Assembly (NCBI GenBank): GCA_964035545.1
Contig: OZ037773.1
Span: forward strand, 3,563,751-3,627,750
Reading direction: 5' to 3'
From: Bugula neritina
Taxonomy: Eukaryota; Animalia; Bryozoa
Length of the DNA stretch: 64,000 nucleotides
Made by a program: the position numbers and the translations under genes. Shown in pieces: positions 1,074 through 38,105 of the stretch. Below the pieces are notes generated by a model. That model was given only the letters and a program-made list of their open reading frames with translations, did no database searches and was not told where the DNA came from. Position 1 is the stretch's first letter; each line of letters opens with the position of its first letter.

Positions 1074-1603
1074 AACAATCTTTGCAAGACTAATTTACAC
1101 ACAGAATAATCTAAACATTGACAGGTTAACTTACCTGTACTAATAAACAATATTGCAACACACACTGCAACCAATTTATGGACTATTGTATGCATTTTAC
1201 TTTCTGACCAACCGTAAACATATGAGGCATGCCGCTTCTGCTACCTAGTGGTCTAGCATGATCGTAATCTGGAGGTAACTGGAGGTATAACGGAAAAATA
1301 ATAAAAAATCCAATAGCCGATAGGGTCGTTAAATAACCTAGAATTTTACTATGGCTTAGTTTCAATGTGTTGACAATCACAATGAGTATGACTGTTACTG
1401 TTACTAACAGTAACAGTGTTAGTGTTACACTTACTGTTACTGTTAGTGTTACAGTTACACTTAGTCTTACACTTACAGATATTTAGTCAGTTACTGTTGC
1501 TGTTAGTAAGACGAAGTCAAAATTAGACTGCAAGTCGAGCAACTAACAACTATTTCTAACACAATAACACTAACAGTAACTACTAACTTACTGTTAGTAA
1601 CAG

Positions 1604-2290
1604 TGCTATAGATGTATTCAAGTATTATTTTATATTTGACATTTTGTATGCTATACCACTACAATATAATATACTACAGATATAGCATCCTGCTTCCCTG
1701 CAACCGTAGTTAGAGCTTAATATTGTTTTGTATTGAATACTTCCATGTATTCTATCTTTTCCCCATTTATAATATCTCTTTTCTTCCATACATAGTGTAT
1801 GTCTACTATATAGAATAACAGTAACATTAAATAGACACACACTTACAAGGTTATACACCATGATACAGGACATACAACTAATTATTGGAGATGGTACAAC
1901 ATTAGCCCTAAAAGTATACTTCCACATATATGATGTTTCGCAACAGGACTTCTAGCCTAAGGATTATAGCACTTCGCTCTTTAGCTATAAGATACTTATC
2001 ACTTTCGTACCCTTACCTTTTATGTTGAGTGACGGAGCTCTGGCTACAAGAAGTAAGCAATGAGAGAACCTTCTGTCTAAACGTGGCAGCTTTGGTGCAG
2101 GATTCCAGATCTCTTGTACACTAGAGTCCGTCGTAAGCAGATGTGACTGAAGAGAAGAATAATACCGGTAAGTGTGATACCAACTATCAACGCGTTATAG
2201 TTATACACATGTAGAATATTCTAATTGTATGCATACCCTGTGTTATATTAGGTACTTAGTAGTTGAAAACCCCCAGTACTCAATATAACA
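1604..2290 (+). repeat. 5' LTR (687 bp)
   Basis: TGCTATAGATG...CAATATAACA; matches 8619-9305 with 6 substitutions counted by eye (about 99% identity) and no indels. Confidence 0.97.
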
Positions 2291-2293
2291 TTT

Positions 2294-2308
2294 TGGAGGA
2301 GGCACTGG
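2294..2308 (+). promoter_or_regulatory. Primer-binding site (tRNA-Cys-like, tentative)
   Basis: TGGAGGAGGCACTGG lies 3 nt after the 5' LTR. TGG pairs with tRNA CCA, and the rest resembles the complement of a metazoan tRNA-Cys 3' end (TGGAGGGGGCAC). tRNA identity is from memory, not searched. Confidence 0.7.
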
Positions 2309-3410
2309 CTTTTGCCCAAGGTTGCCCTTGTTAAATATTGTGTCCAGCTTTGAATTAATAGCTCTTGACACTTGGTTAACCACCCCGTGCGCCAGGGGAT
2401 AAAATTATATTAATACTTTAAATAGTGTTGATCAGGCCTCATTTGGCTGTTCACTAATATTTTCCTGTAGGTTTTATATTCGCTGAGCTCATATTTTGCT
2501 CGTGGGTAGACCGTAGAAGTGCTAGGCCGCACTGAGAAAATATTAATTGAAGCCAAAAAGGATCAACTTTTACATATTACCCCAAAACAATATACATCCA
2601 TAGACTAATAGTAATAGAGCGAGAATTCCTATATGTTTAATTTTTCTCTGCTGCTTAAAAGGTGAAAACAAGCCAGTTTTAATTTTTTTTAGCTTAGAGA
2701 TAATTAATTGTAGAAGTGAATTACCTCCCTTTGCTAATAGGCTAATTTAGTTGTATAATTGGGTGAGCTGCAGATAAGGTTAACACGCTCCTTATTTAGC
2801 AGTTAATAAATTCCAAACAGATTCAGTTTACGACTGTCTGCTGAGGTATAGGCGCTGACAAGTACTATAATTAATAGTCTTGTCCTAAACATAATTTCTT
2901 ATAATTATCTACAATTTACTTTGCAGTGCATTGCCAATCAGAGCATCACTGAATTGTATATTATATATTTACACATTATACGAATATTACATTGCAGTAC
3001 TAAGTATCGCAACACCTGCAGTGCAGTCAGTGTATTATAGTACAAAGCATTGTCCTATTAAGTATTATAGTACCTAAGTACAACAACCGCCTTACTACAT
3101 AGTACGAATATCAAACTAATTAATTACTGTGGTTGACTAAATTTAGATTTTAGACTAGGCTTGAATAGCAGAAATAACTGAATAATTTGTAGTGTACAGA
3201 GGTCATAATAAAAGACTTCCACTAACTTAAAGTATTTAACTGCAAGCCACACCTTGTCATATATACAGGCTAGTACATGCACACATATCGTTTAGTAAGA
3301 AATAGACACATAATTGTACATTAGCACAAAGTATAAACATTAATAACATTGCAAACAAGTAGTGCTGAACTCACTTATTAATTGAAAATTATAAGTCACG
3401 CACCAACAAT

Positions 3411-4289
3411 ATGAGTACCGGAATCGTGACCACCGCCACAACTACAGTCACCACTAGTGTTAGTACTATTGCGACACCAGGTAGTGCCACAAATGTAGCC
3501 ACGGGCTTAGACACTCCTACCCTCTCACAAGACTCCACAAGAGAAGGAGCTCACGCATTGGTTGAGTTGTCCGAAAGACGACTCCCAATGAACCCGCATG
3601 AAATTGCAAGGTTCTACGAGTTAGAATACAAGAAACTTGTAGAGGAGCAGGAAAAGCAAAAGGATGTATGGAGATATGAGCAAGAACAATGGCGACAGTA
3701 TCAACAAACGAAAGAGCATGAACTGGCGGAACAGTTTCAGCGCCTCGAGGTAGAAAGACAAGAGCAAGCAAGAAGACGGTACGAGATGGAGGAAAGTTTT
3801 GAAATCCAACGAAGAAAGTTCTATGAGGAACAGAGCGCTGTTCAAGAACAACAGCAAAATGAGTTCCTGGAAAAAGAGCATCGGCTCACAATCCAGCAAC
3901 AAAAGTTACAACAACAACTTGAAGATTTTCGGAATCTCACCTTGGGTCAAAGATCTACCAATGATGCAAATGTCATGCCGGAACCAACTCCGCCACCTCG
4001 AACTCGCCTACCTCCACCAGTTACGCCACGGAAAACAAGTAGAAGACAACTCCATGAACAACCAGCACCTACACCTACAATTACTAACTTGGAATTCACA
4101 TCAAGTTACCCCCACATTGCTAATCAACAATCACCAAAACCTCAAAACTCACCAATCCAAAACTTAGCTGAAACACCATCTGAACACAGCATTGGAGTAG
4201 CTGATGCGGGAAGATTTCACAACTCACCTATTATTCTGAGAGAGCCTCCACAGGACATTAAATTTAAAGGAACTCCTGGTTCCAGCTAG
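3411..4289 (+). CDS. gag: Gag N-terminal part (Thr-rich, Q/E coiled coil, Pro-rich); ends at an in-frame TAG inside the capsid motif
   Basis: Same frame as the 4320 ORF (offset 909 nt). Reads FKGTPGSS*ELFLEKWEKNMKKL across the stop, which resembles the Gypsy capsid F-x-G-x(n)-W-x-x-F motif with W (TGG) replaced by TAG. Confidence 0.8.
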   Translation: MSTGIVTTATTTVTTSVSTIATPGSATNVATGLDTPTLSQDSTREGAHALVELSERRLPMNPHEIARFYELEYKKLVEEQEKQKDVWRYEQEQWRQYQQTKEHELAEQFQRLEVERQEQARRRYEMEESFEIQRRKFYEEQSAVQEQQQNEFLEKEHRLTIQQQKLQQQLEDFRNLTLGQRSTNDANVMPEPTPPPRTRLPPPVTPRKTSRRQLHEQPAPTPTITNLEFTSSYPHIANQQSPKPQNSPIQNLAETPSEHSIGVADAGRFHNSPIILREPPQDIKFKGTPGSS

Positions 4290-4319
4290 GAGTTATTTCT
4301 TGAAAAATGGGAAAAGAAC

Positions 4320-7300
4320 ATGAAAAAACTGCAGCTTAGTGATTATCAGATGGCACAAAACCTTCCAGATGCCCTGGAAGGTGGTGCCTATCAGGTTTTC
4401 AAGGCAGTAGTTGCAAAGGAGCCCACGCTAGCGATTAGTTACAAGAGTCTTCGAGAGAGGTTATGCAAAGAGTTTGTCGACTCAAGCAAATTAGTGTGGA
4501 ACATAAAGATGGGGAAGAAAAGCGTACTAGAATATTATGGCGAATTTATGGAAGCTGCCAACACCCAATGGCCTGACCTCTCCCTTGAACATAAAGATAG
4601 CGTGCTAGTATCTGCTTTTATTACTGGTCTACGACCAGGATTGAAGAGGCACCTCCTCTCTAAAAACCCCACAACTGTAGAAAGTGCTAGGAAACTTGCA
4701 CTTAAGCAAGAAAATGTAGAACATCAGATGGGAGATGACACCCAGAGAATAGTGGCAACGGTAAACTCATCTGACTCAGTTCAAAAGCTAGAAAAAGAGG
4801 TAGAATGGTTGAAAACTTTAGTGAACAACCAAGCTAAAGAGCAACGGCAGCCTCAATACCAACAGCACCAACAACAGAGTCAAGGGTTTGGAATGAGAAA
4901 TGACAGAGGTAGAGGTGGTGGATGGAGAGGAACAACAAACCGAGGAAGAGGACGAGGTAGATACTTCAACCAGGGGAAGCCTCAACCCTACTACCAATCT
5001 TCTCCCCGGTACCCTCATCCACCAGCACAACTTCCTTCCTGCCCACCTCAACCACCCTCTCACCAGCAACCACAACGTAATCAGTGCTCTGGTCAACAGA
5101 GCAAAACCAAAGATCACAGTGGGACGCGACACATCAATGCTATTGAGAGCCTGGAGGGTGATGAATTTGCTGAGGCCCTTCTGACACAACCTCCTCAAGA
5201 TGACATAGCTGAGGAATTAGTGAATTCAATTCAAACCTCTCCAAATGAATTCATCTCTGACAGGAAACCCAAAAGAACGAGAAGCAGAGGACGGGGGACT
5301 GGTTTGTCAACAATGCAAACCTACATGTTGTCACTAGTGGCAATGTGTATGCTGATCAGTGTAGCCGCAGCCACTGCACCAGTAAAAGGCACAGCTCTCC
5401 TGGGGCCAGCGTTGGCCAGTCAGACTCTCACCGGCATACTATCTGTGTTAGTGTTGACAGCAGTAGTGAATGCATTGTCTAACACGACTGTTTTTAACAC
5501 TACACAGAAGGCACAGCCGCAGTATGCCAGGTATCCTTTGGTGTGTAGTTCCAGTGAAGTTAGGCGACCATCTATTCATCAATTGAATCATGACTTCCAA
5601 TGTGATCCAACTCCAAGACTCAATAGTACTCATGCGCCAACCCCTGTGAAGGCTACGGTTTACAGAAAAAATGTAGTGGAATGGCGTACAGCAGCCCATC
5701 AATGCACTAAAATGCTGTACACCATCTCCACACAGATATCACTTTTTACGGATGTGAAAACTAAGAAGGAATCTCACCGGTCACTGCCAGTTAGTCGCAG
5801 CGAATGCGAAAATATGGTACTAGAGAAGAGATGCAATGAAGGTGCCCTATCTGGAAGTGATGGTGCATACACTACAAAAAACAAAGCTGCAGGATTAGCT
5901 TATGTTTGGTGCTGCAAGTGGCATGACTTTGAAGTGAAACAATGCAGTTATATTTCGGCTTCGGTATACAAGACATTTGGAAAAAGTTCTTTTGAAAACA
6001 CCGCAGGTGACGTTTCCCATTGCAACTCATACTCTGATGGCTACTGCAAACTCAGAGATCAATCTATGCTGATATGGGAAACAGAACGAGAAGCTAATTG
6101 TCCATACGAGGAGTGGTATGAAGTTGAAGGAAGTTTCCTTGATGGCTATTTTGTTAGTGATCAAGAAGACTTGGCTTTAACTTTCCGCAAGAACCCCTTT
6201 GGGAATATCACCACTTGTGACGGCAAGTCAGGCACAATGTCGGACCAAGGTTTGCTTGTCGTTTTTAATACTTCAGACCTGTTCAACACTACTCTAACGC
6301 AACACGTTGAAAAGGCTCCTGGATTAGAATGGGACCGCAGGAGTCGTCTGAGTCCAGCATATGCTGTCATGGACGCTATAGCTCAGTCCCTAGAAGTACA
6401 GATTCTCGGAATCGAATCGAAACTGTATTGGACATCTTATCAATATACCTGTAAAAACATAGTTCAAGTCCTCAAAACCGTAGCTCTACTCGCAGAGCAA
6501 CATGCGACGAGTACAGCCAGATACTTACTAGGGGTAAGCAATATCCGAGCTGAGTCTGGTCCTGGTTTTCTAAAGATTTACCCATGTACGGAAATAAAAA
6601 GCTACAAAATGCTCCCTATGCCAGAGAATAATTGCACCATGTTTATTCCAGTAGAATTGGAACTCAATGGGGAAACGCACACTGGTTTCATGGATCCAAT
6701 AGATAACATTATTCACACACAAAGTGCACAAGCACCGTGCACATCCAAATCAGCAATTGCATTCCGGATGAACGATGAATTGTTTTGGTATAACCAAGAT
6801 GGTACCGTAGAAAAGGTTAATCTTGGAGAAGACCTGAGTTTACCTGGAATTTCCCTAGGTGCACACCCTCTTAAAATCCATGAAACAATCTACAGCCGCG
6901 CCCATCACCTAAGTTGGCCTGACCTGTCAGCACACTCTGACTTGAATGAATTGCTAGCTACTTTGTCAAGACAGAAACAAGTTCTAGAAGCAATGGGAAT
7001 TCAATCCAACAGACATGTTTCCTTTAAAAACAATGTCATTGAGTCGAAAGAGAACTTGATAGGGAACTCTTGGTTTGCTTTTCTGTTTGGAGGGCATGTG
7101 GCGAGTGCATTCGAATTGTGGACTTTGATATCCAACTGTTTAGTCACCATATTGTCAATTGCATTGCTAGGTATTTTCCTATATAATCGTTGTTGCCAGC
7201 AAAGGAGAAATATTGTAGCAGCTATCGACATTGAGGACACAGAGGACACATCTGACAATGATGTTGAGGCAGGAGAACAGGATGGGTTCCTGGACGCTTC

Positions 7301-7424
7301 CGATCAGACTAGCTTCACAGAATTCGTAGATATGGTAGAGGTGGACACTAGACCAACACCTAGTGCTCCTTCGCCTGCATCTTCAATTCAGCAATATCGC
7401 CCCCTCTATCCGAAACTGCAATGA
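4320..7424 (+). CDS. Gag capsid + RGG-rich nucleocapsid-like region fused in frame to a class III viral fusion glycoprotein (Env)
   Basis: Capsid-like ...SVLEYYGEF...AFITGLRPGLKRHL...PTTVESARKLA, then an RGRGG region. Hydrophobic signal-like segments from about 5313. Cys-rich ectodomain with N-glycosylation sequons, RRSR at 6336-6347, and a gB-like C-terminal half (YTC...ATSTARYLLG...LKIYPC...NNCTMFIPV...GFMDP...APC). TM at about 7116-7184, then CC and a cytoplasmic tail. Confidence 0.85.
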   Translation: MKKLQLSDYQMAQNLPDALEGGAYQVFKAVVAKEPTLAISYKSLRERLCKEFVDSSKLVWNIKMGKKSVLEYYGEFMEAANTQWPDLSLEHKDSVLVSAFITGLRPGLKRHLLSKNPTTVESARKLALKQENVEHQMGDDTQRIVATVNSSDSVQKLEKEVEWLKTLVNNQAKEQRQPQYQQHQQQSQGFGMRNDRGRGGGWRGTTNRGRGRGRYFNQGKPQPYYQSSPRYPHPPAQLPSCPPQPPSHQQPQRNQCSGQQSKTKDHSGTRHINAIESLEGDEFAEALLTQPPQDDIAEELVNSIQTSPNEFISDRKPKRTRSRGRGTGLSTMQTYMLSLVAMCMLISVAAATAPVKGTALLGPALASQTLTGILSVLVLTAVVNALSNTTVFNTTQKAQPQYARYPLVCSSSEVRRPSIHQLNHDFQCDPTPRLNSTHAPTPVKATVYRKNVVEWRTAAHQCTKMLYTISTQISLFTDVKTKKESHRSLPVSRSECENMVLEKRCNEGALSGSDGAYTTKNKAAGLAYVWCCKWHDFEVKQCSYISASVYKTFGKSSFENTAGDVSHCNSYSDGYCKLRDQSMLIWETEREANCPYEEWYEVEGSFLDGYFVSDQEDLALTFRKNPFGNITTCDGKSGTMSDQGLLVVFNTSDLFNTTLTQHVEKAPGLEWDRRSRLSPAYAVMDAIAQSLEVQILGIESKLYWTSYQYTCKNIVQVLKTVALLAEQHATSTARYLLGVSNIRAESGPGFLKIYPCTEIKSYKMLPMPENNCTMFIPVELELNGETHTGFMDPIDNIIHTQSAQAPCTSKSAIAFRMNDELFWYNQDGTVEKVNLGEDLSLPGISLGAHPLKIHETIYSRAHHLSWPDLSAHSDLNELLATLSRQKQVLEAMGIQSNRHVSFKNNVIESKENLIGNSWFAFLFGGHVASAFELWTLISNCLVTILSIALLGIFLYNRCCQQRRNIVAAIDIEDTEDTSDNDVEAGEQDGFLDASDQTSFTEFVDMVEVDTRPTPSAPSPASSIQQYRPLYPKLQ

Positions 7425-7907
7425 CTAGAAGCCGACACACCCAGTACTAGTAGCCGCATTGAAATAGTAGCAGGAATAAATGGTAATCAATGTAGGAGTG
7501 CATTAATTGACGTCAAAATAGCAGGAAAACCGTATCAAGCATTAGCTGATGCCGGGGCTACGGTGACACTGATGCGCTCTGACATTGCTAAAAGATTGAG
7601 TCTACCATTATATTCAGGTACCTTGACTGCAAAAGGGGTTAACAGCTCTAAACTTCATATACTAGGACGCATGGCCGCTGAGATTACAATTGGATCGAAA
7701 GTGTTTAAGCAGTGTTTTCATGTAGCTGATGATATTGGCCATGAGGTACTGCTTGGAACTGATTTTCTTAGCAAACTGGGTGATGTAACCTACAATTTTG
7801 CAAAAGGAGAGTTTCGTTTCTCTGGCGAAACTTTACCCATGAGAGAAACCAACGCACTAACTACTTTTAAAATAAAAACTATGAATGCAGTACACATACC
7901 ACCATAA
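7425..7907 (+). CDS. pro: Retropepsin-like aspartic protease, in frame after the TGA-CTAG stop
   Basis: Open frame from 7425: ...LIDVKIAGKPYQALADAGATVTLM...HEVLLGTDFLSKLG. Catalytic motif reads D-A-G (7548-7556) and the LLGxDFL motif is present. Confidence 0.85.
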   Translation, partial: LEADTPSTSSRIEIVAGINGNQCRSALIDVKIAGKPYQALADAGATVTLMRSDIAKRLSLPLYSGTLTAKGVNSSKLHILGRMAAEITIGSKVFKQCFHVADDIGHEVLLGTDFLSKLGDVTYNFAKGEFRFSGETLPMRETNALTTFKIKTMNAVHIPP

Positions 7908-8610
7908 TCTCACCCGATTCATCACTTTACATAATCATGCAGATATACCAGATATACTAATATTTACTGCCATATTAATAATCAAGTTTTTCAATGGAAC
8001 ACAGGAGTTTTCCTGTTGTTCACAGGAGGGAGTACTTTAACATTTTTTTCAGCATTACAGGTTAACATCTTCTACAGTTTTGGCTTCTTATAAAACAAAC
8101 TTACTAAAAATTGCAGAAATCAAATTGACTTTTGATTAAAATAAAATTGAGTAAGCTCTGTATTGGGAAAATTGAATCAAATCAAGCGGAATTTTTAAAT
8201 ATTCAAAGTTGGATAAAATGCGGAGTCGATTGTTATCACCACCTCCTGTGACTTATGTTTATAATATTCATAATTACTGTATAGCTTAAAATCTTGTTTT
8301 TTTATTTTATCAACAGATAAAGTTCATCAAAAAAAAATGAAAATATGGTTACAAAAAAAGGGAACAGTGTAAGAAATGAGTGAGAAAAAAAAGATTATGT
8401 GACCAGAAAAAAAAAAAAAATACTCACTCTAATCGATGAACTCACTAGTACTAATAGAATACATATATGCAACAGCTAGTAAACATAATTTTCAAATTTT
8501 ACTCATTTTATTGTGAAAGGTTTCTCTTCCTTTTTTATTTCGGAGTAGTAATGCTTAATTGTTTATGCTTTCAACTAGCATGAGCCACCGGAGGTGTCTT
8601 TCTCTAAATT

Positions 8611-8618
8611 GGGGAGGA
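8611..8618 (+). promoter_or_regulatory. Polypurine tract
   Basis: GGGGAGGA immediately before the TG of the 3' LTR. Confidence 0.85.
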
Positions 8619-9305
8619 TGCTAGAGATGTATTCAAGTATTATTTTATATTTGACATTTTGTATGCTATACCACTACAATATAATATACTACAGATATAG
8701 CATCCTGCTTCCCTGCAACCTTAGTTAGAGCTTAATATTGTTTTGTATTGAATACTTCCATGTATTCTATCTTTTCCCCATTTATAATATCTCTTTTCTT
8801 CTATACATAGTGTATGCCTACTATATAGAATAACAGTAACATTAAATAGACACACACTTACAAGGTTATACACCATGATACAGGACATACAACTAATTAT
8901 TGGAGATGGTACAACATTAGCCCTAAAAGTATACTTCCACATATATGATGTTTCGCAACAGGACTTCTAGCCTAAGGATTATAGCACTTCGCTCTTTAGC
9001 TATAAGATACTTATCACTTTCGTACCCTTACCTTTTATGTTGAGTGACGGAGCTCTGGCTACAAGAAGTAAGCAATGAGAGAACCTTCTGTCTAAACGTG
9101 GCAGCTTTGGTGCAGGATTCCAGATCTCTTGTACACTAGAGTCCGTCGTAAGCAGATGTGACTGAAGAGAAGAATAATACCGGTAAGTGTGATACCAACT
9201 ATCAACGCGTTATAGTTATACACATGTAGAATATTCTAGTTGTATGCATACCCTGTGTTATATTAGGTACTTAGTATTTGAAAACCCCCAGTACTCAATA
9301 TAACA
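8619..9305 (+). repeat. 3' LTR (687 bp)
   Basis: TGCTAGAGATG...CAATATAACA; direct repeat of 1604-2290. Confidence 0.97.
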
Positions 9306-9783
9306 ACAGTGTTACTTGTTAGTGTTACATAATTCATGATGTTAGATAACTTTTGCATCTCTAACAAACCTTTATATATGTATAAATATTTAAGACTAAT
9401 AAATGATTTTTTAGTGAAAGCAAAACTAGTGAAGCAAAAGCTCCTAAAGTGACAAGATCGTACACTCCCTCAGCAGTAAGTTTGTTACAATTCTTGCTAT
9501 GTGTTCGCAAAATAAATTTAGTATAAAATTTAACATTAGGGTTCATAATATTTATTTTTTAAGTTATAACAGATTATATATCTTGAATTATAGGGAAGCT
9601 GAAAGCGCTACACTACTTTAAAACCCTCAAAATGACAATGAACAAGACCCAGCAAAGTATGTATTATATCATCGCCTACATTATTTCATTTTACTAGCAC
9701 AGATATTACATTTTCCATTCTATTGTATTGTAAAAATCATTCCTTAATTAATGCTTTGATGAACTATTTATTTTCATTTTAGG

Positions 9784-12747: not shown

Positions 12748-15705
12748 ACTGGGTAATTACCATACTACAGTGCCATATGTTGTCTCCGTGTACAACCCGT
12801 AGCTGAAATGACGAAATAAAATGCTCCACTACTATAGGTGAAAGGTGAACTCTTTGGCTAAACCTCTTAATTTTTAGGTTAGGCTAGTAGGGCAGTACCT
12901 AAGTTTATATACTAGGTATAAAGAAAATTGGAACTTCAGGGGTTCGGGCAAATAAACTATTTCAGTAGTTCAAACAAAGTTTTGAAGATTAATTTGAGCA
13001 GCCAAGTTAAAAATGTCTATCTAGACTTCATTGGGGGCAACATATGGGTCATCCCTTTATCAACATGAGATTCTGTAATTATTGTTGTGCATCTTTAAAT
13101 TTATAAAACTCTTAAAATATGGATTTTTGGACCACTTATCTCCTTACATTGCCTGCAACAGCACTTTTCATCTGCTCACCAACTTAATTAGCTTCGCCAG
13201 CACACCTCTGATGGAGCTCTAAGAAACCGAGCTACATCTTGCAAGTTTTCACACTAAATTCAGCACGGGGTGGGGGGGGGGTAAATATAGAGTATTTCTA
13301 CTTGAGAGCCCTGAATACACCATTGAGATATTAGAACCTTTCTAATCATATGAATGTTTAGTATGATCCACAATGAATATATAAGTAGCTGGTAGTTCAT
13401 TTGGTAAACCACAAGAATGCTCAGCCAGCTGACAACACCGGATTACTCAGAGGTAAGCTATAAAATGTATAGTGAGTATTGTTTTGCAAGAGATATTCAG
13501 CAAGCATGCATTAGCTGGCAAATTTTCTATTAACAAATCTACAGTTTAACTGCAAACTGGAAATCCATGTTTTTCTTTAAAATGGTTTGTAGCTTGCAAT
13601 ATTATGTTGAAACTGATACTTTGGCCGTCAAGTTAAGACTTTCCAATAAATTTGTAGCGGTGTGTATATGGAAATACATTTACATAATATTATATAAAGA
13701 AGAAATACAACTATATAAGCAGTCATCATAGAGCCTTGATTAGATAGTAAGAAAAGGTATTACATGATATATAAGATATACTGATCTTGCTGTAGGCAGC
13801 TAATACCAATATGATGACGCTGCCTGTCATCCCAGGAGACAGGTTATGTTAACAGACCAAATATCAGTAAAAACAAGTAAAAGAGTTCCATGTTTGTGTG
13901 TGATTTAGGCTAGAGAATAAGGTACAGGAAGTTGTTGTTTGTGATAGTTTGAGGTGAAACAACAAAAGTAGCCAGCATAATGTAAATATAATGTGACACT
14001 ATAATATTCCAAGTATGGTATATACTACAGCATGCAACTATAGTGTCACTTTAATATATATTATATATTATTATTATATCACTAATATAATACAGTATAT
14101 ATTACAACAATTATAATGTAATATTACCCAAATAGTATATATACTACAGCTAATATAATATTATATTATAATGTTGCAAATATGATATATATTACAGCAA
14201 CCATATCGTATAATGTTACAAATACCTATAATATATATTATAATATAATTTCATCAAAGTAGTAGATAATATTACAACAATTATAATAACGGAACATCAC
14301 AAATATAATATATGTCACAGCAATTAGAATAATAACACAGTTATGGTATGTATTTTGGCAATTAAAATACAGTATTGCAAATATATTGCAATATGTAACT
14401 CAATAAATGTAATATAAGTTAACAAATTTGATAACTGGTTTCAAAATCACAGTCTAGTAAACTCCTGATCTATATCAGTTGAATGTCTGATTGGAATCAA
14501 TCCCTTTCATAAATTATATACAAAATATAATTTTTATTTAAACTTGAAGTTACCTCAAAATTAATAGAAATTGATTGATTATAGTAACATGCAGTTAGCA
14601 GCTTACATGAAAATATTAAAATATTTGCCATATCTAGCTCTCAAAAATAATTATTATAATATATTTCCCACAACATTGATATAGTTCTTTAGCAATTATT
14701 ATGATTTCCATAAAGAAAACATAAAATACAGTAAAAACTCCCTAAAATAATGGCATAAGTTGCAGGTAGCAGATGGTGCTATATAGCAGGTGCATCCTGC
14801 TGTTCTTTCCACGTAACACTTCTAATTCTTCCTAGTAAGGCATAGTATAGGTCAACAGCACTTCAAACCTGATGACCTACCTATATAATATCACTGCCTA
14901 AAGGCAGCAATCAGTGTTCCTACACATCAAGTGATATCGGCTGCTCCTATAACTGGCTCATCAAACACTTACATTCAGCTGTCTAAGCCAGAGCTTCGTA
15001 GCAATTACTCAGTGGTAATGCATTTATAAAATAGAACATTACATTGTATAAGCTGTTTCAAGTAAGTTTTAATTATTCGTCTTAAACTCATGTTAGAAAA
15101 AGTCTTAAAGCAAATAATTTACATAGCTAGAAGTAAATTGTAACAGGGATGTACTTTGGTGAATCATTAAAACTGTTTATGTTTAGTTGACGTTGCGGTA
15201 TTCTACAATATACGAGTAATAATGTTGTATGTAATAAAAAAATATTAATTGAAACCAAAACTGTTGCTATACAAAATAATGATAAGGTAAGAAATAGCTT
15301 TCTTGTACAGTCTGCAGCAAAAATAAAAGATATCATTTATATGAATTGTTATACTTCGTATTTCTGCATCTAAAGTTAACAAGAACTTTTCATACCTTTA
15401 CAGTTTTTAGGTAAAAGTTACCAGTATGCAATACCCATAATATGTTGAACATTTAATTCACATGTATTAAAACGTATTATAAGAATTATATTTTGAACAT
15501 GTCACATTGCAAATACTTCACAAATAGTTAAACACATGTACGCTTCTCCTGTCCTGAGCTTATTTGTAGCATAAAATACATTGCTATTATTTTTATTATG
15601 ACACTTTTATTGAAAGAAAAGTTAGTTGCTTAAATTAGTATTACATAAGTTTCATCATTAAAAGCTAATTGCCTGCAATTTGTTTCAGGTCCTTCTTCTA
15701 TCACA

Positions 15706-16911
15706 ATGACGGGCCTATTAGATAACACAACAGGAAATGCTACGGCGGACATATCGAACACTAACATAAGTGATATTCATCGCTTTTACTTCCTAATGAC
15801 TGGAGTTGGGGGACTACCAATATGCTGTGTTGGCATCTTATCTAATATCATAAACGTTCTGGTCTTATCCAGTATGTTGCGCCGTTACCGATGGCCGTCC
15901 ATGTACTTCCTGCTGGTTCTGGGTGTTTCCGACATGTTTGTGCTGACTTTTTACATGATCTACATCGTTGTATGTGTGTTAGCGCCAGTCCAACCTCTTC
16001 TCTTTAAGCAGGATTTCGTCAAACACGAAGGCACGTCTGCTCATATTTTCTGCTCAGTCTGGTATATTCCTGCAAATATATTTGTGACTCTCTCCAACTA
16101 CTGCATCGTGTCAATGATGGTGTTTAGATTCCTAGCAGTATACTTCCCTTTGAAAGTTAAACAATTGTGTACAGTCACTCGGGCTAAGCTCACTTTAGCT
16201 ACCATTTCAATATTTTCATTTTTTCTTGTCTTTCCGGAGTTCCTCACCCATCGGCTGAAAACTGATGCATCAACCAAAAAGATATTTCTGGAAACTCTTC
16301 CTCTTTTCTCTAACAAAAATTTCAACAAGTATTATTATGGTGTATTAGAAGCATTCAACAGTATTATACCATTCATTGCGTGCGTCTTATTGAGTGTAAT
16401 GTTAATAAAAGCTTTATACTATGCTGGTGGCTCATTAAAAGGGCAAGGACAATTAAGAAAAAATTCAAAACGAAAGGCAGAACACAGAAAAGTAACTTTA
16501 TCGTTACTGAGCATAGCTTTGCTCTTCATAGCCTGCTCTCTCCCCAGTTTTGTATGTCGAGTTGTCAAGACATTGTTACAAGGTAGCGATACATCTGGGT
16601 ACTTAACATGGGCAAAGTTCAGGGCTGTTGCCGATATATCTCTGCTGATAAACCACTCGGCTAACTTCATACTGTATGCTGCCACCAGCAGTCTCTATAG
16701 GTCAACCTGTGCAAATTTGTTTTGCTGTCGAAACCACAGAGATTTGGCTAGGCAGGCGTCAGTTGCTATGTCTCTGAGGAATACGTCCCTCAGAGAATCT
16801 GTTGGCATTAGAAATAGTCCTCCGCTATGCCATAGATATGAGAGGAGGGCAAAGATTAATGGCAGCCCTGCTAAAACGACGTACAAGGCTGTCTCAAATA
16901 ATGAAAGTTGA
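15706..16911 (+). CDS. Class A (rhodopsin-like) neuropeptide GPCR, FMRFamide/sex-peptide receptor-like
   Basis: 401 aa, single coding exon, 7 hydrophobic segments. GILSNIIN (TM1), LGVSD (TM2), FRFLAVYFPLK (DRY position), CSLP (TM6), NHSANFILY (TM7), N-terminal sequons. Splice acceptor TTTCAG just upstream of the ATG. Confidence 0.92.
   Translation: MTGLLDNTTGNATADISNTNISDIHRFYFLMTGVGGLPICCVGILSNIINVLVLSSMLRRYRWPSMYFLLVLGVSDMFVLTFYMIYIVVCVLAPVQPLLFKQDFVKHEGTSAHIFCSVWYIPANIFVTLSNYCIVSMMVFRFLAVYFPLKVKQLCTVTRAKLTLATISIFSFFLVFPEFLTHRLKTDASTKKIFLETLPLFSNKNFNKYYYGVLEAFNSIIPFIACVLLSVMLIKALYYAGGSLKGQGQLRKNSKRKAEHRKVTLSLLSIALLFIACSLPSFVCRVVKTLLQGSDTSGYLTWAKFRAVADISLLINHSANFILYAATSSLYRSTCANLFCCRNHRDLARQASVAMSLRNTSLRESVGIRNSPPLCHRYERRAKINGSPAKTTYKAVSNNES

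Positions 16912-28899: not shown

Positions 28900-38105
<9,206 letters not shown>

Follow-up and report, generated by a model that had tools for sequence, protein, structure and literature searches.

A recently inserted, probably pol-deleted errantivirus copy in Bugula neritina, from a family with a candidate readthrough stop between Env and protease

How the stoichiometry of structural proteins and enzymes is controlled, and how the enzymes are packaged, is an open question for any retroelement that carries an envelope glycoprotein (Env) between Gag and Pol. The question is raised by a long terminal repeat (LTR) element at positions 1604–9305 of a 64-kb stretch of the genome of the bryozoan Bugula neritina (contig OZ037773.1, positions 3,563,751 to 3,627,750, forward strand), the whole of which is referred to here as the window. 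The element is probably a recently inserted, pol-deleted, Gag-disabled copy of a GAG-ENV-POL family of Ty3/gypsy errantiviruses, in whose intact members Gag and Env form one open reading frame (ORF) and Pol is likely produced by readthrough. The candidate answer offered by this clade is a leaky stop codon after the Env tail, with Pol tethered to the fusogen and the budding motifs placed on Env. The gene order itself was already known. The novelty lies in the conserved leaky stop and in the motifs of the Env tail; the window copy is a broken one that has little interest on its own.

The element contains a single frame, running from an ATG at 3411 to 7907, in which profile matches to Retrotrans_gag (E 1e-6), Monjiviricetes_fusion (E 2.5e-6) and gag-asp_protease (E 1e-13) mark Gag, a glycoprotein and a protease; these and all other oriented features of the element lie on the forward strand. 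A preliminary description, made from the nucleotide sequence, had proposed one reading frame in this order. The order was confirmed, but the frame is not open, being interrupted by two in-frame stops, a TAG at 4287–4289 and a TGA at 7422–7424. The TAG was already known to that description; the TGA between Env and the protease had gone unmentioned there, and yet it is the informative feature. It is embedded in CAA-TGA-CTAG (7419–7428), a type II readthrough context, and its position is conserved in intact relatives.

Relatives were collected in two ways. A protein search with Env gave 13 matches of 39–53% identity, and in 11 of these the protein also includes a Gag that has a CCHC knuckle, and it stops after the Env tail. 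Full-length members of the clusters to which these homologues belong share equal lengths, which indicates that the stop is fixed in those families. A metagenome scan returned 22 loci, 14 of them with an intact Env/protease junction and representing six lineages (98–99.8% identity within lineages, at most 73% between the pairs compared), whose Env proteins are 39–54% identical to that of the window. At all 14 loci Gag-Env ends at one in-frame stop and the same frame then continues into Pol, which is 1289–1312 aa long where complete. The Metaviridae order of protease, reverse transcriptase (RT), RNase H (RH) and integrase (IN) was present in all six relatives scanned; the window copy has the protease only. 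Descent from an autonomous gag-env-pol lineage had been suggested beforehand, together with a search for relatives in which the protease continues into RT-RH-IN; six such intact lineages are now in hand, and the order has been published. In a tree of Env the window clusters with loci L002, L003 and L008 (support 100/98), in agreement with capsid and protease identities. The position of Env between Gag and Pol is that of the GAG-ENV-POL errantivirus lineage.

CAR-YYA is the general form of the CAAUUA readthrough motif. Over seven lineages (the window and the six relatives), Gag and Env share a single ORF that closes with an in-frame stop, and its surroundings match a published readthrough context: UGA-CUA in three, CAR-YYA in three and UGA-CGC in one, with CAA before the stop in six of the seven and C after it in all of them. 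The contexts described comprise UAGCAAUUA (type I), UGACUA and UGACGG (type II) and the alphavirus variant UGACGC, and readthrough at UGACUAG is given as at least ~1.3% (PMC13517186). The chance of such contexts, calculated from codon frequencies, is ~1e-9, a figure that is overstated in that related lineages were treated as independent; more weight belongs to the finding that a single site is occupied by three different motifs. Each of the seven lineages combines a conserved in-frame stop, a known leaky context and an open frame behind it, the combination by which a readthrough site is recognized at the sequence level. In six of the seven, the catalytic Asp comes before the first Met that follows the stop.

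An AG is present 4–12 nt past the stop in all seven lineages, behind DNA made pyrimidine-rich by the proline-rich tail, and this raises the alternative that the codon is a true stop, with Pol expressed from a transcript spliced into the protease from Gag or from the LTR, or through reinitiation. This first AG, however, falls in three different phases across lineages, whereas Pol is in frame with Gag-Env in every one. A donor-like GGTAAG in the LTR at 2167 and the lack of RNA structure downstream of the stop would suit splicing, but the site carries three distinct known readthrough motifs, and a start at AUG would drop the catalytic Asp in six of the seven lineages. In addition, among 21 long matches to distant relatives (picked from 150), seven have no stop and form one continuous Gag-Env-Pol protein. 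A true stop is considered improbable. We infer readthrough from the conserved in-frame leaky contexts, the first Met past the catalytic Asp and the varying phase of the nearest AG, and Pol is very probably made by stop-codon readthrough as an extension of the Env tail.

The protein that would precede such an extension was analyzed further. The frame protein has hydrophobic segments at residues 635–695 and 1230–1262. The first corresponds to two tandem hydrophobic segments, resembling an internal signal peptide, at 5313–5495 (a single segment in most relatives), and the second to a predicted transmembrane segment at 7098–7196. Between them lies the ectodomain (5496–7097), assigned as a class III fusion glycoprotein, with 16 cysteines, and seven N-glycosylation sequons occur from residue 691 on. 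A sequence search of Env against the PDB gave no matches, and the fold was recognized by structure search instead. The ectodomain model (predicted local distance difference test score 64, predicted TM-score 0.44) was matched by Foldseek to nyamivirus G (E 1e-23, the top BFVD match) and herpes simplex virus gB (E 2e-15), and by VIA to Epstein–Barr virus gB (Z 11.2, root-mean-square deviation 15.7, 345 residues aligned). TM-scores of the model are low (0.3–0.4) because the orientation of its domains is uncertain. A feature search of the Atlas with Env also returned negative-strand virus glycoproteins, a result of low recognition value. As modelled, Env is a class III, gB/nyamivirus-like fusogen of the kind carried by the GAG-ENV-POL errantivirus lineage. 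All 16 ectodomain cysteines are invariant in the 14 proteins aligned.

PTAP/PSAP, PPxY and YPxL are the late-domain motifs by which retroviruses engage the endosomal sorting complexes required for transport (ESCRT); the same motifs also serve in trafficking signals of the host. In the window the acidic cytoplasmic tail (7197–7421) follows the membrane segment and contains a predicted protease-type site, PSAP (7359–7370) and YPxL (7407–7418). Of the 14 proteins, 13 have motifs of these types within their final 60 aa, compared with 5 of 256 other sequence windows, and the lone protein without one ends just past its membrane segment. Sites resembling V/I-N/A-A-V/I recur behind the capsid and the nucleocapsid, ahead of the signal peptide and directly behind the membrane segment; their placement is as expected for cleavage by the element's own protease.

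Related Env sequences were also observed in other settings: joined to a pair of SPRY domains in P0080, downstream of one protease or flanked by two in P0040 and P0047, and within a BEL/Pao polyprotein that also has a poly(A) polymerase-like domain in P0164. Three distant proteins with Gag, Env and protease (P0035, P0036, P0063) end without RT, for which a frameshift, a truncation or some other kind of pol-less form could account.

Upstream of Env, Gag (3411–5312) consists of a coiled, Q-rich N terminus, a Ty3-type capsid at ~4338–4733 and an RG-rich nucleocapsid region without a CCHC knuckle. The missing knuckle was considered as a sign of non-autonomy and rejected, since intact L007 and L008 lack it as well. 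In these loci (L007, 995–4408; L008, 1468–5001) an intact element with full Pol has an RG/YN-rich nucleocapsid with no CCHC knuckle, as in the window. The TAG at 4287–4289, inside the capsid region, is premature; the 11 Gag-bearing relatives are open at this position. It cuts translation at 292 aa, ahead of the capsid core, and the window copy is thereby disabled, with no capsid, Env or protease made from the Gag start. The preliminary description had pictured a structurally complete ‘virion-builder’, which for the window copy fails because of this truncation. At the rate given by the LTRs, ~20 substitutions would be expected over 4.5 kb since insertion, and one nonsense change after insertion is therefore unremarkable.

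The termini of the element are well preserved. A 4-bp target-site duplication (1600–1603, repeated at 9306–9309) flanks two LTRs of 687 bp with TG...CA ends (5′ LTR, 1604–2290; 3′ LTR, 8619–9305), which differ by six substitutions. A TGG-led primer-binding-like site begins 3 nt past the end of the 5′ LTR (2294–2308); its primer might be tRNA-Cys, a guess, and no tRNA genes were found in the window. The leader (2291–3410) is 1120 nt long with 34% GC and two upstream ATGs, and a purine run at 8611–8618 forms the polypurine tract (PPT). These terminal features (TG...CA ends, a short target-site duplication, primer-binding site and PPT), together with the Ty3-type capsid and the aspartic protease, are those of Ty3/gypsy elements (Metaviridae). 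The LTRs, duplication, primer-binding site and PPT had all been reported in the preliminary description and held up on re-examination, as did recent retrotransposition, which is indicated by the near-identical LTRs and by an empty-site allele among contigs of sequencing runs. No second copy of the element was found within the window, and an Rfam scan of 1500–9400 gave a single match at chance level. A 9-nt inverted repeat bounds the last 50 nt of each LTR (2241–2290 and 9256–9305), forming a terminal hairpin. The element was inserted into a host repeat of low complexity (1400–1603), which the sequencing runs compared contain in great abundance.

Behind the leaky-type stop, the frame encodes the aspartic protease (catalytic motif at 7548–7556) and a post-protease linker of ~40 aa (7425–7904). 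The last position with similarity to Pol is 7904, near the pol-less junction previously placed at about 7910. An AT-rich non-coding tail with poly(A) runs (7905–8610) then takes the place of the ~3.4 kb of RT-RH-IN in relatives. Counted to the end of the PPT (7905–8618) it is 714 nt long with 28–31% GC, compared with 45% in Gag-Env and 44–50% in pol. RT, RNase H and integrase were not detected in any frame of the window by tblastn with eight Pol proteins of relatives, in accord with the earlier account of ~700 bp of AT-rich non-coding DNA and no pol enzymes. A decayed Pol remnant in the tail was likewise considered and was undetected by tblastn or two profiles (best E for the Pol profile 0.45). 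Published intact GAG-ENV-POL errantiviruses were included on the rule that RT and integrase are complete and lie in an uninterrupted ORF (PMC13524379), and by that rule the window copy is a defective derivative; two intact LTRs without RT or integrase give it the structure of a TR-GAG-like element.

Whether the pol-less form itself moved, or arose in place, was assessed with contigs of four sequencing runs (X1, X2, X3 and X5), in which depth is not a measure of copy number. In X1 an empty-site contig has a depth of 89 and internal contigs a depth of 415–630, which indicates a polymorphic insertion and a multi-copy family; the best-matching run may itself be the source sample. Among 20 runs listed, no RNA run with the element appeared, and X3 and X5 may be RNA, as a guess. 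A variant ~4% divergent in Gag-Env is present in X2, X3 and X5. The tail is covered in all four runs, with X5 pieces at 7957–8118.

One explanation of the tail is a single dead copy, in which an autonomous GAG-ENV-POL insert later lost RT-RH-IN through one deletion, leaving the protease next to the long 3′ untranslated region (UTR) that the parent already had. Such a UTR would be out of line with relatives, where the pol stop is 91–169 nt from the PPT (L002/L020, L003, L008/L009 and L012, the four lineages in which a PPT-like run was seen) and not ~700 nt, and the tail lacks the basic Pol C-terminal motif conserved in all nine Pol proteins compared. A dead copy would fit the nonsense mutation already present and the ~20 substitutions expected, with decay under way, and it would fit the ends of contigs from three runs within 20 nt of the junction, none of those listed crossing it. 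The tail from 7957 on, however, is found in runs whose Gag-Env differs by ~4%, at a depth near that of the internal region, while flank depth is near zero in X3 and X5. Deletion derivatives of the family do exist, although no pol-skipping joint appears among the 15 of 32 joints listed. The single dead copy is judged unlikely, if far from negligible, and transposition of the pol-less form itself is the reading towards which we lean.

The deletion derivative concerned is contig 25 of X5, at ~4x the depth of the rest, in which the LTR near 2146 is joined to Gag at ~3434 and the sequence skips from 3615 to ~3943. The joints show microhomology and no GT-AG, as in a smaller deletion derivative of the family; X3 has the same diagnostic indel at 3484.

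Env and protease are intact, and none of the 16 cysteines nor the leaky-stop context has been lost. This could be taken to mean that a pol-less lineage was selected as a helper giving capsid, fusogen and protease to a partner that gives RT and integrase. Intactness may, however, be no more than a trace of an autonomous parent in the recent past. The indel totals of the two longest variant contigs are multiples of three (18 and 9) and, of the Env ORF differences listed, four of five are synonymous; over all coding differences listed, only 10 of 19 are synonymous, these being a tool-chosen subset of 579. Selection as a helper also sits poorly with the premature capsid stop in the window copy, and if Pol is tethered to Env in this family, any partner with Pol would already have Gag-Env of its own, leaving nothing for a helper to supply. 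This proposal is regarded as rather doubtful.

The contigs also bear on the integrity of the region, since the glycoprotein might have been a separate nested insertion, or the whole an assembly chimera. One X5 contig spans 4146–7502, which excludes a chimera across Gag-Env-protease, and an independent X3 contig crosses Gag-Env. The same Gag-Env fusion in 11 of the 13 homologues marks it as a family trait and not a nested insertion, and capsid, Env and protease share the same nearest relatives. Nothing in favour of either was found, and both were rejected as having a negligible chance of being right.

Several points weigh against a pol-less mobile form from a readthrough family and should be set beside the evidence above. 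Readthrough is read from sequence; stimulatory RNA structure 3′ of the stop was not significant (z −2.1 to +1.7), and 8 of the 22 metagenome loci were decayed or too short to assess. The tandem signal-peptide-like segments (5313–5495 in the window; also in P0002) fit poorly with a simple one-signal topology. Among the contigs listed none crosses 7904–7910, the long ones ending at 7887 (X3 and X5) and 7906 (X1); such ends fit ordinary variant bubbles and may equally mark forks into pol in other copies. If a long AT-rich 3′ UTR was already present in the parent, a uniform depth over the tail would be uninformative on the junction. Searches returned neither an autonomous parent nor an autonomous partner sharing LTR ends and primer-binding site: the best protease-bearing Pol is 55% identical, in a database without this family (best Env match 53%). 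Viral and genome contig collections, which lack this family, gave no relatives.

One interpretation of these data is that particle building proceeds as follows. Gag would stay in the cytosol, while the internal signal peptide would send the class III fusogen into the endoplasmic reticulum (ER), where signal peptidase would split Env from Gag, and the transmembrane segment would bring the chain back to the cytosol. Most ribosomes would end after the acidic Env tail, whose late-domain-like motifs would recruit ESCRT for budding. A few percent would read on, such that protease, RT and integrase enter particles tethered to Env and not to Gag, to be freed at the V/I-N/A-A-V/I-type sites. In the window lineage RT-RH-IN would have been lost ~40 codons past the protease, with the RNA copied in trans by an autonomous partner. 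It could be, then, that this enveloped clade builds its particles inside out, with Gag and Env split at the ER, ESCRT late domains on the Env tail and Pol as a readthrough extension through three leaky motifs in sister lineages, and that one lineage dropped RT-RH-IN and still spreads as an enveloped non-autonomous family; this fuller account is put forward tentatively, with slightly less than even confidence. If it is true, LTR retrotransposons and type I contexts would join the known animal readthrough cases, with UGA-CUA, UGA-CGC and UGA/UAG-CAR-YYA as natural variants of a single homologous position. A mobile family that lacks pol but has Env would act as a passenger of the defective-interfering kind, with the capacity to pass from cell to cell.

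Elsewhere in the window, an intronless ORF for a rhodopsin-family G-protein-coupled receptor (PF00001/PF10324) lies at 15649–16911 and shares 90% identity with a JGI protein. At 29933–30399 and 34560–35165 there are two long fold-back (inverted-repeat) elements, 84–89% self-complementary, and a 250-aa ORF begins at 35263, directly after the second.

Among known systems, the nematode NERVs, which Sacco et al. are said to have described in 2022 in J Gen Virol, reportedly have a continuous gag-env-pro-pol ORF with a nyamivirus-like Env. The window element would resemble them in having Env between Gag and the protease and in the nyamivirus-like Env, which fits the top BFVD match; it would differ from such a continuous ORF in the conserved leaky-type stop that its clade has after Env.

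GAG-ENV-POL Ty3/gypsy errantiviruses with a gB-type Env have been reported in Nematoda, Bryozoa and Platyhelminthes (Chary & Hayashi, eLife, PMC13524379). The closest likeness is to the bryozoan errantiviruses of configuration C2b (Cpal_errantivirus_4, _5 and _6), which are Ty3/gypsy elements with the order Gag-Env-Pol and a class III Env (PMC13524379). A match of the window Env to the published 210-aa Cpal Env segment, by eye only, was seen in the spacing of ten cysteines and in motifs. Unlike these bryozoan elements, the window copy lacks RT-RH-IN and has a nonsense codon in the capsid. Leaving aside its figures and GitHub sequence files, the main text of that paper is silent on readthrough, on fusion or polyprotein and on non-autonomous forms; its supplements as searched do not mention readthrough, fusion or frameshift, and the preprint is likewise without readthrough terms. 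A literature search of titles and the starts of abstracts, with subscription papers mostly outside it, found no published description of readthrough after Env in a GAG-ENV-POL element.

The stop itself resembles those of gammaretrovirus gag-pol and alphavirus nsP3-nsP4, which are in frame upstream of the polymerase in a UGA-CUA, UGA-CG or CAA-YYA context and set the ratio of structural proteins to enzymes (PMC13517186). Here, unlike in those cases, the stop follows the Env cytoplasmic tail, so that Pol would be fused to a membrane glycoprotein, and no pseudoknot or stem-loop was found. Retrotransposons, Metaviridae and errantiviruses go unmentioned in the available text of that readthrough review. 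As a truncated element, the window copy is like TR-GAG and other truncated non-autonomous plant LTR elements, with two LTRs and a structural gene kept and RT and integrase absent (PMC9784723). Mobility of the truncated form is here a proposal only, and the element is set apart from TR-GAG by its animal host and by the Env and protease that it retains.

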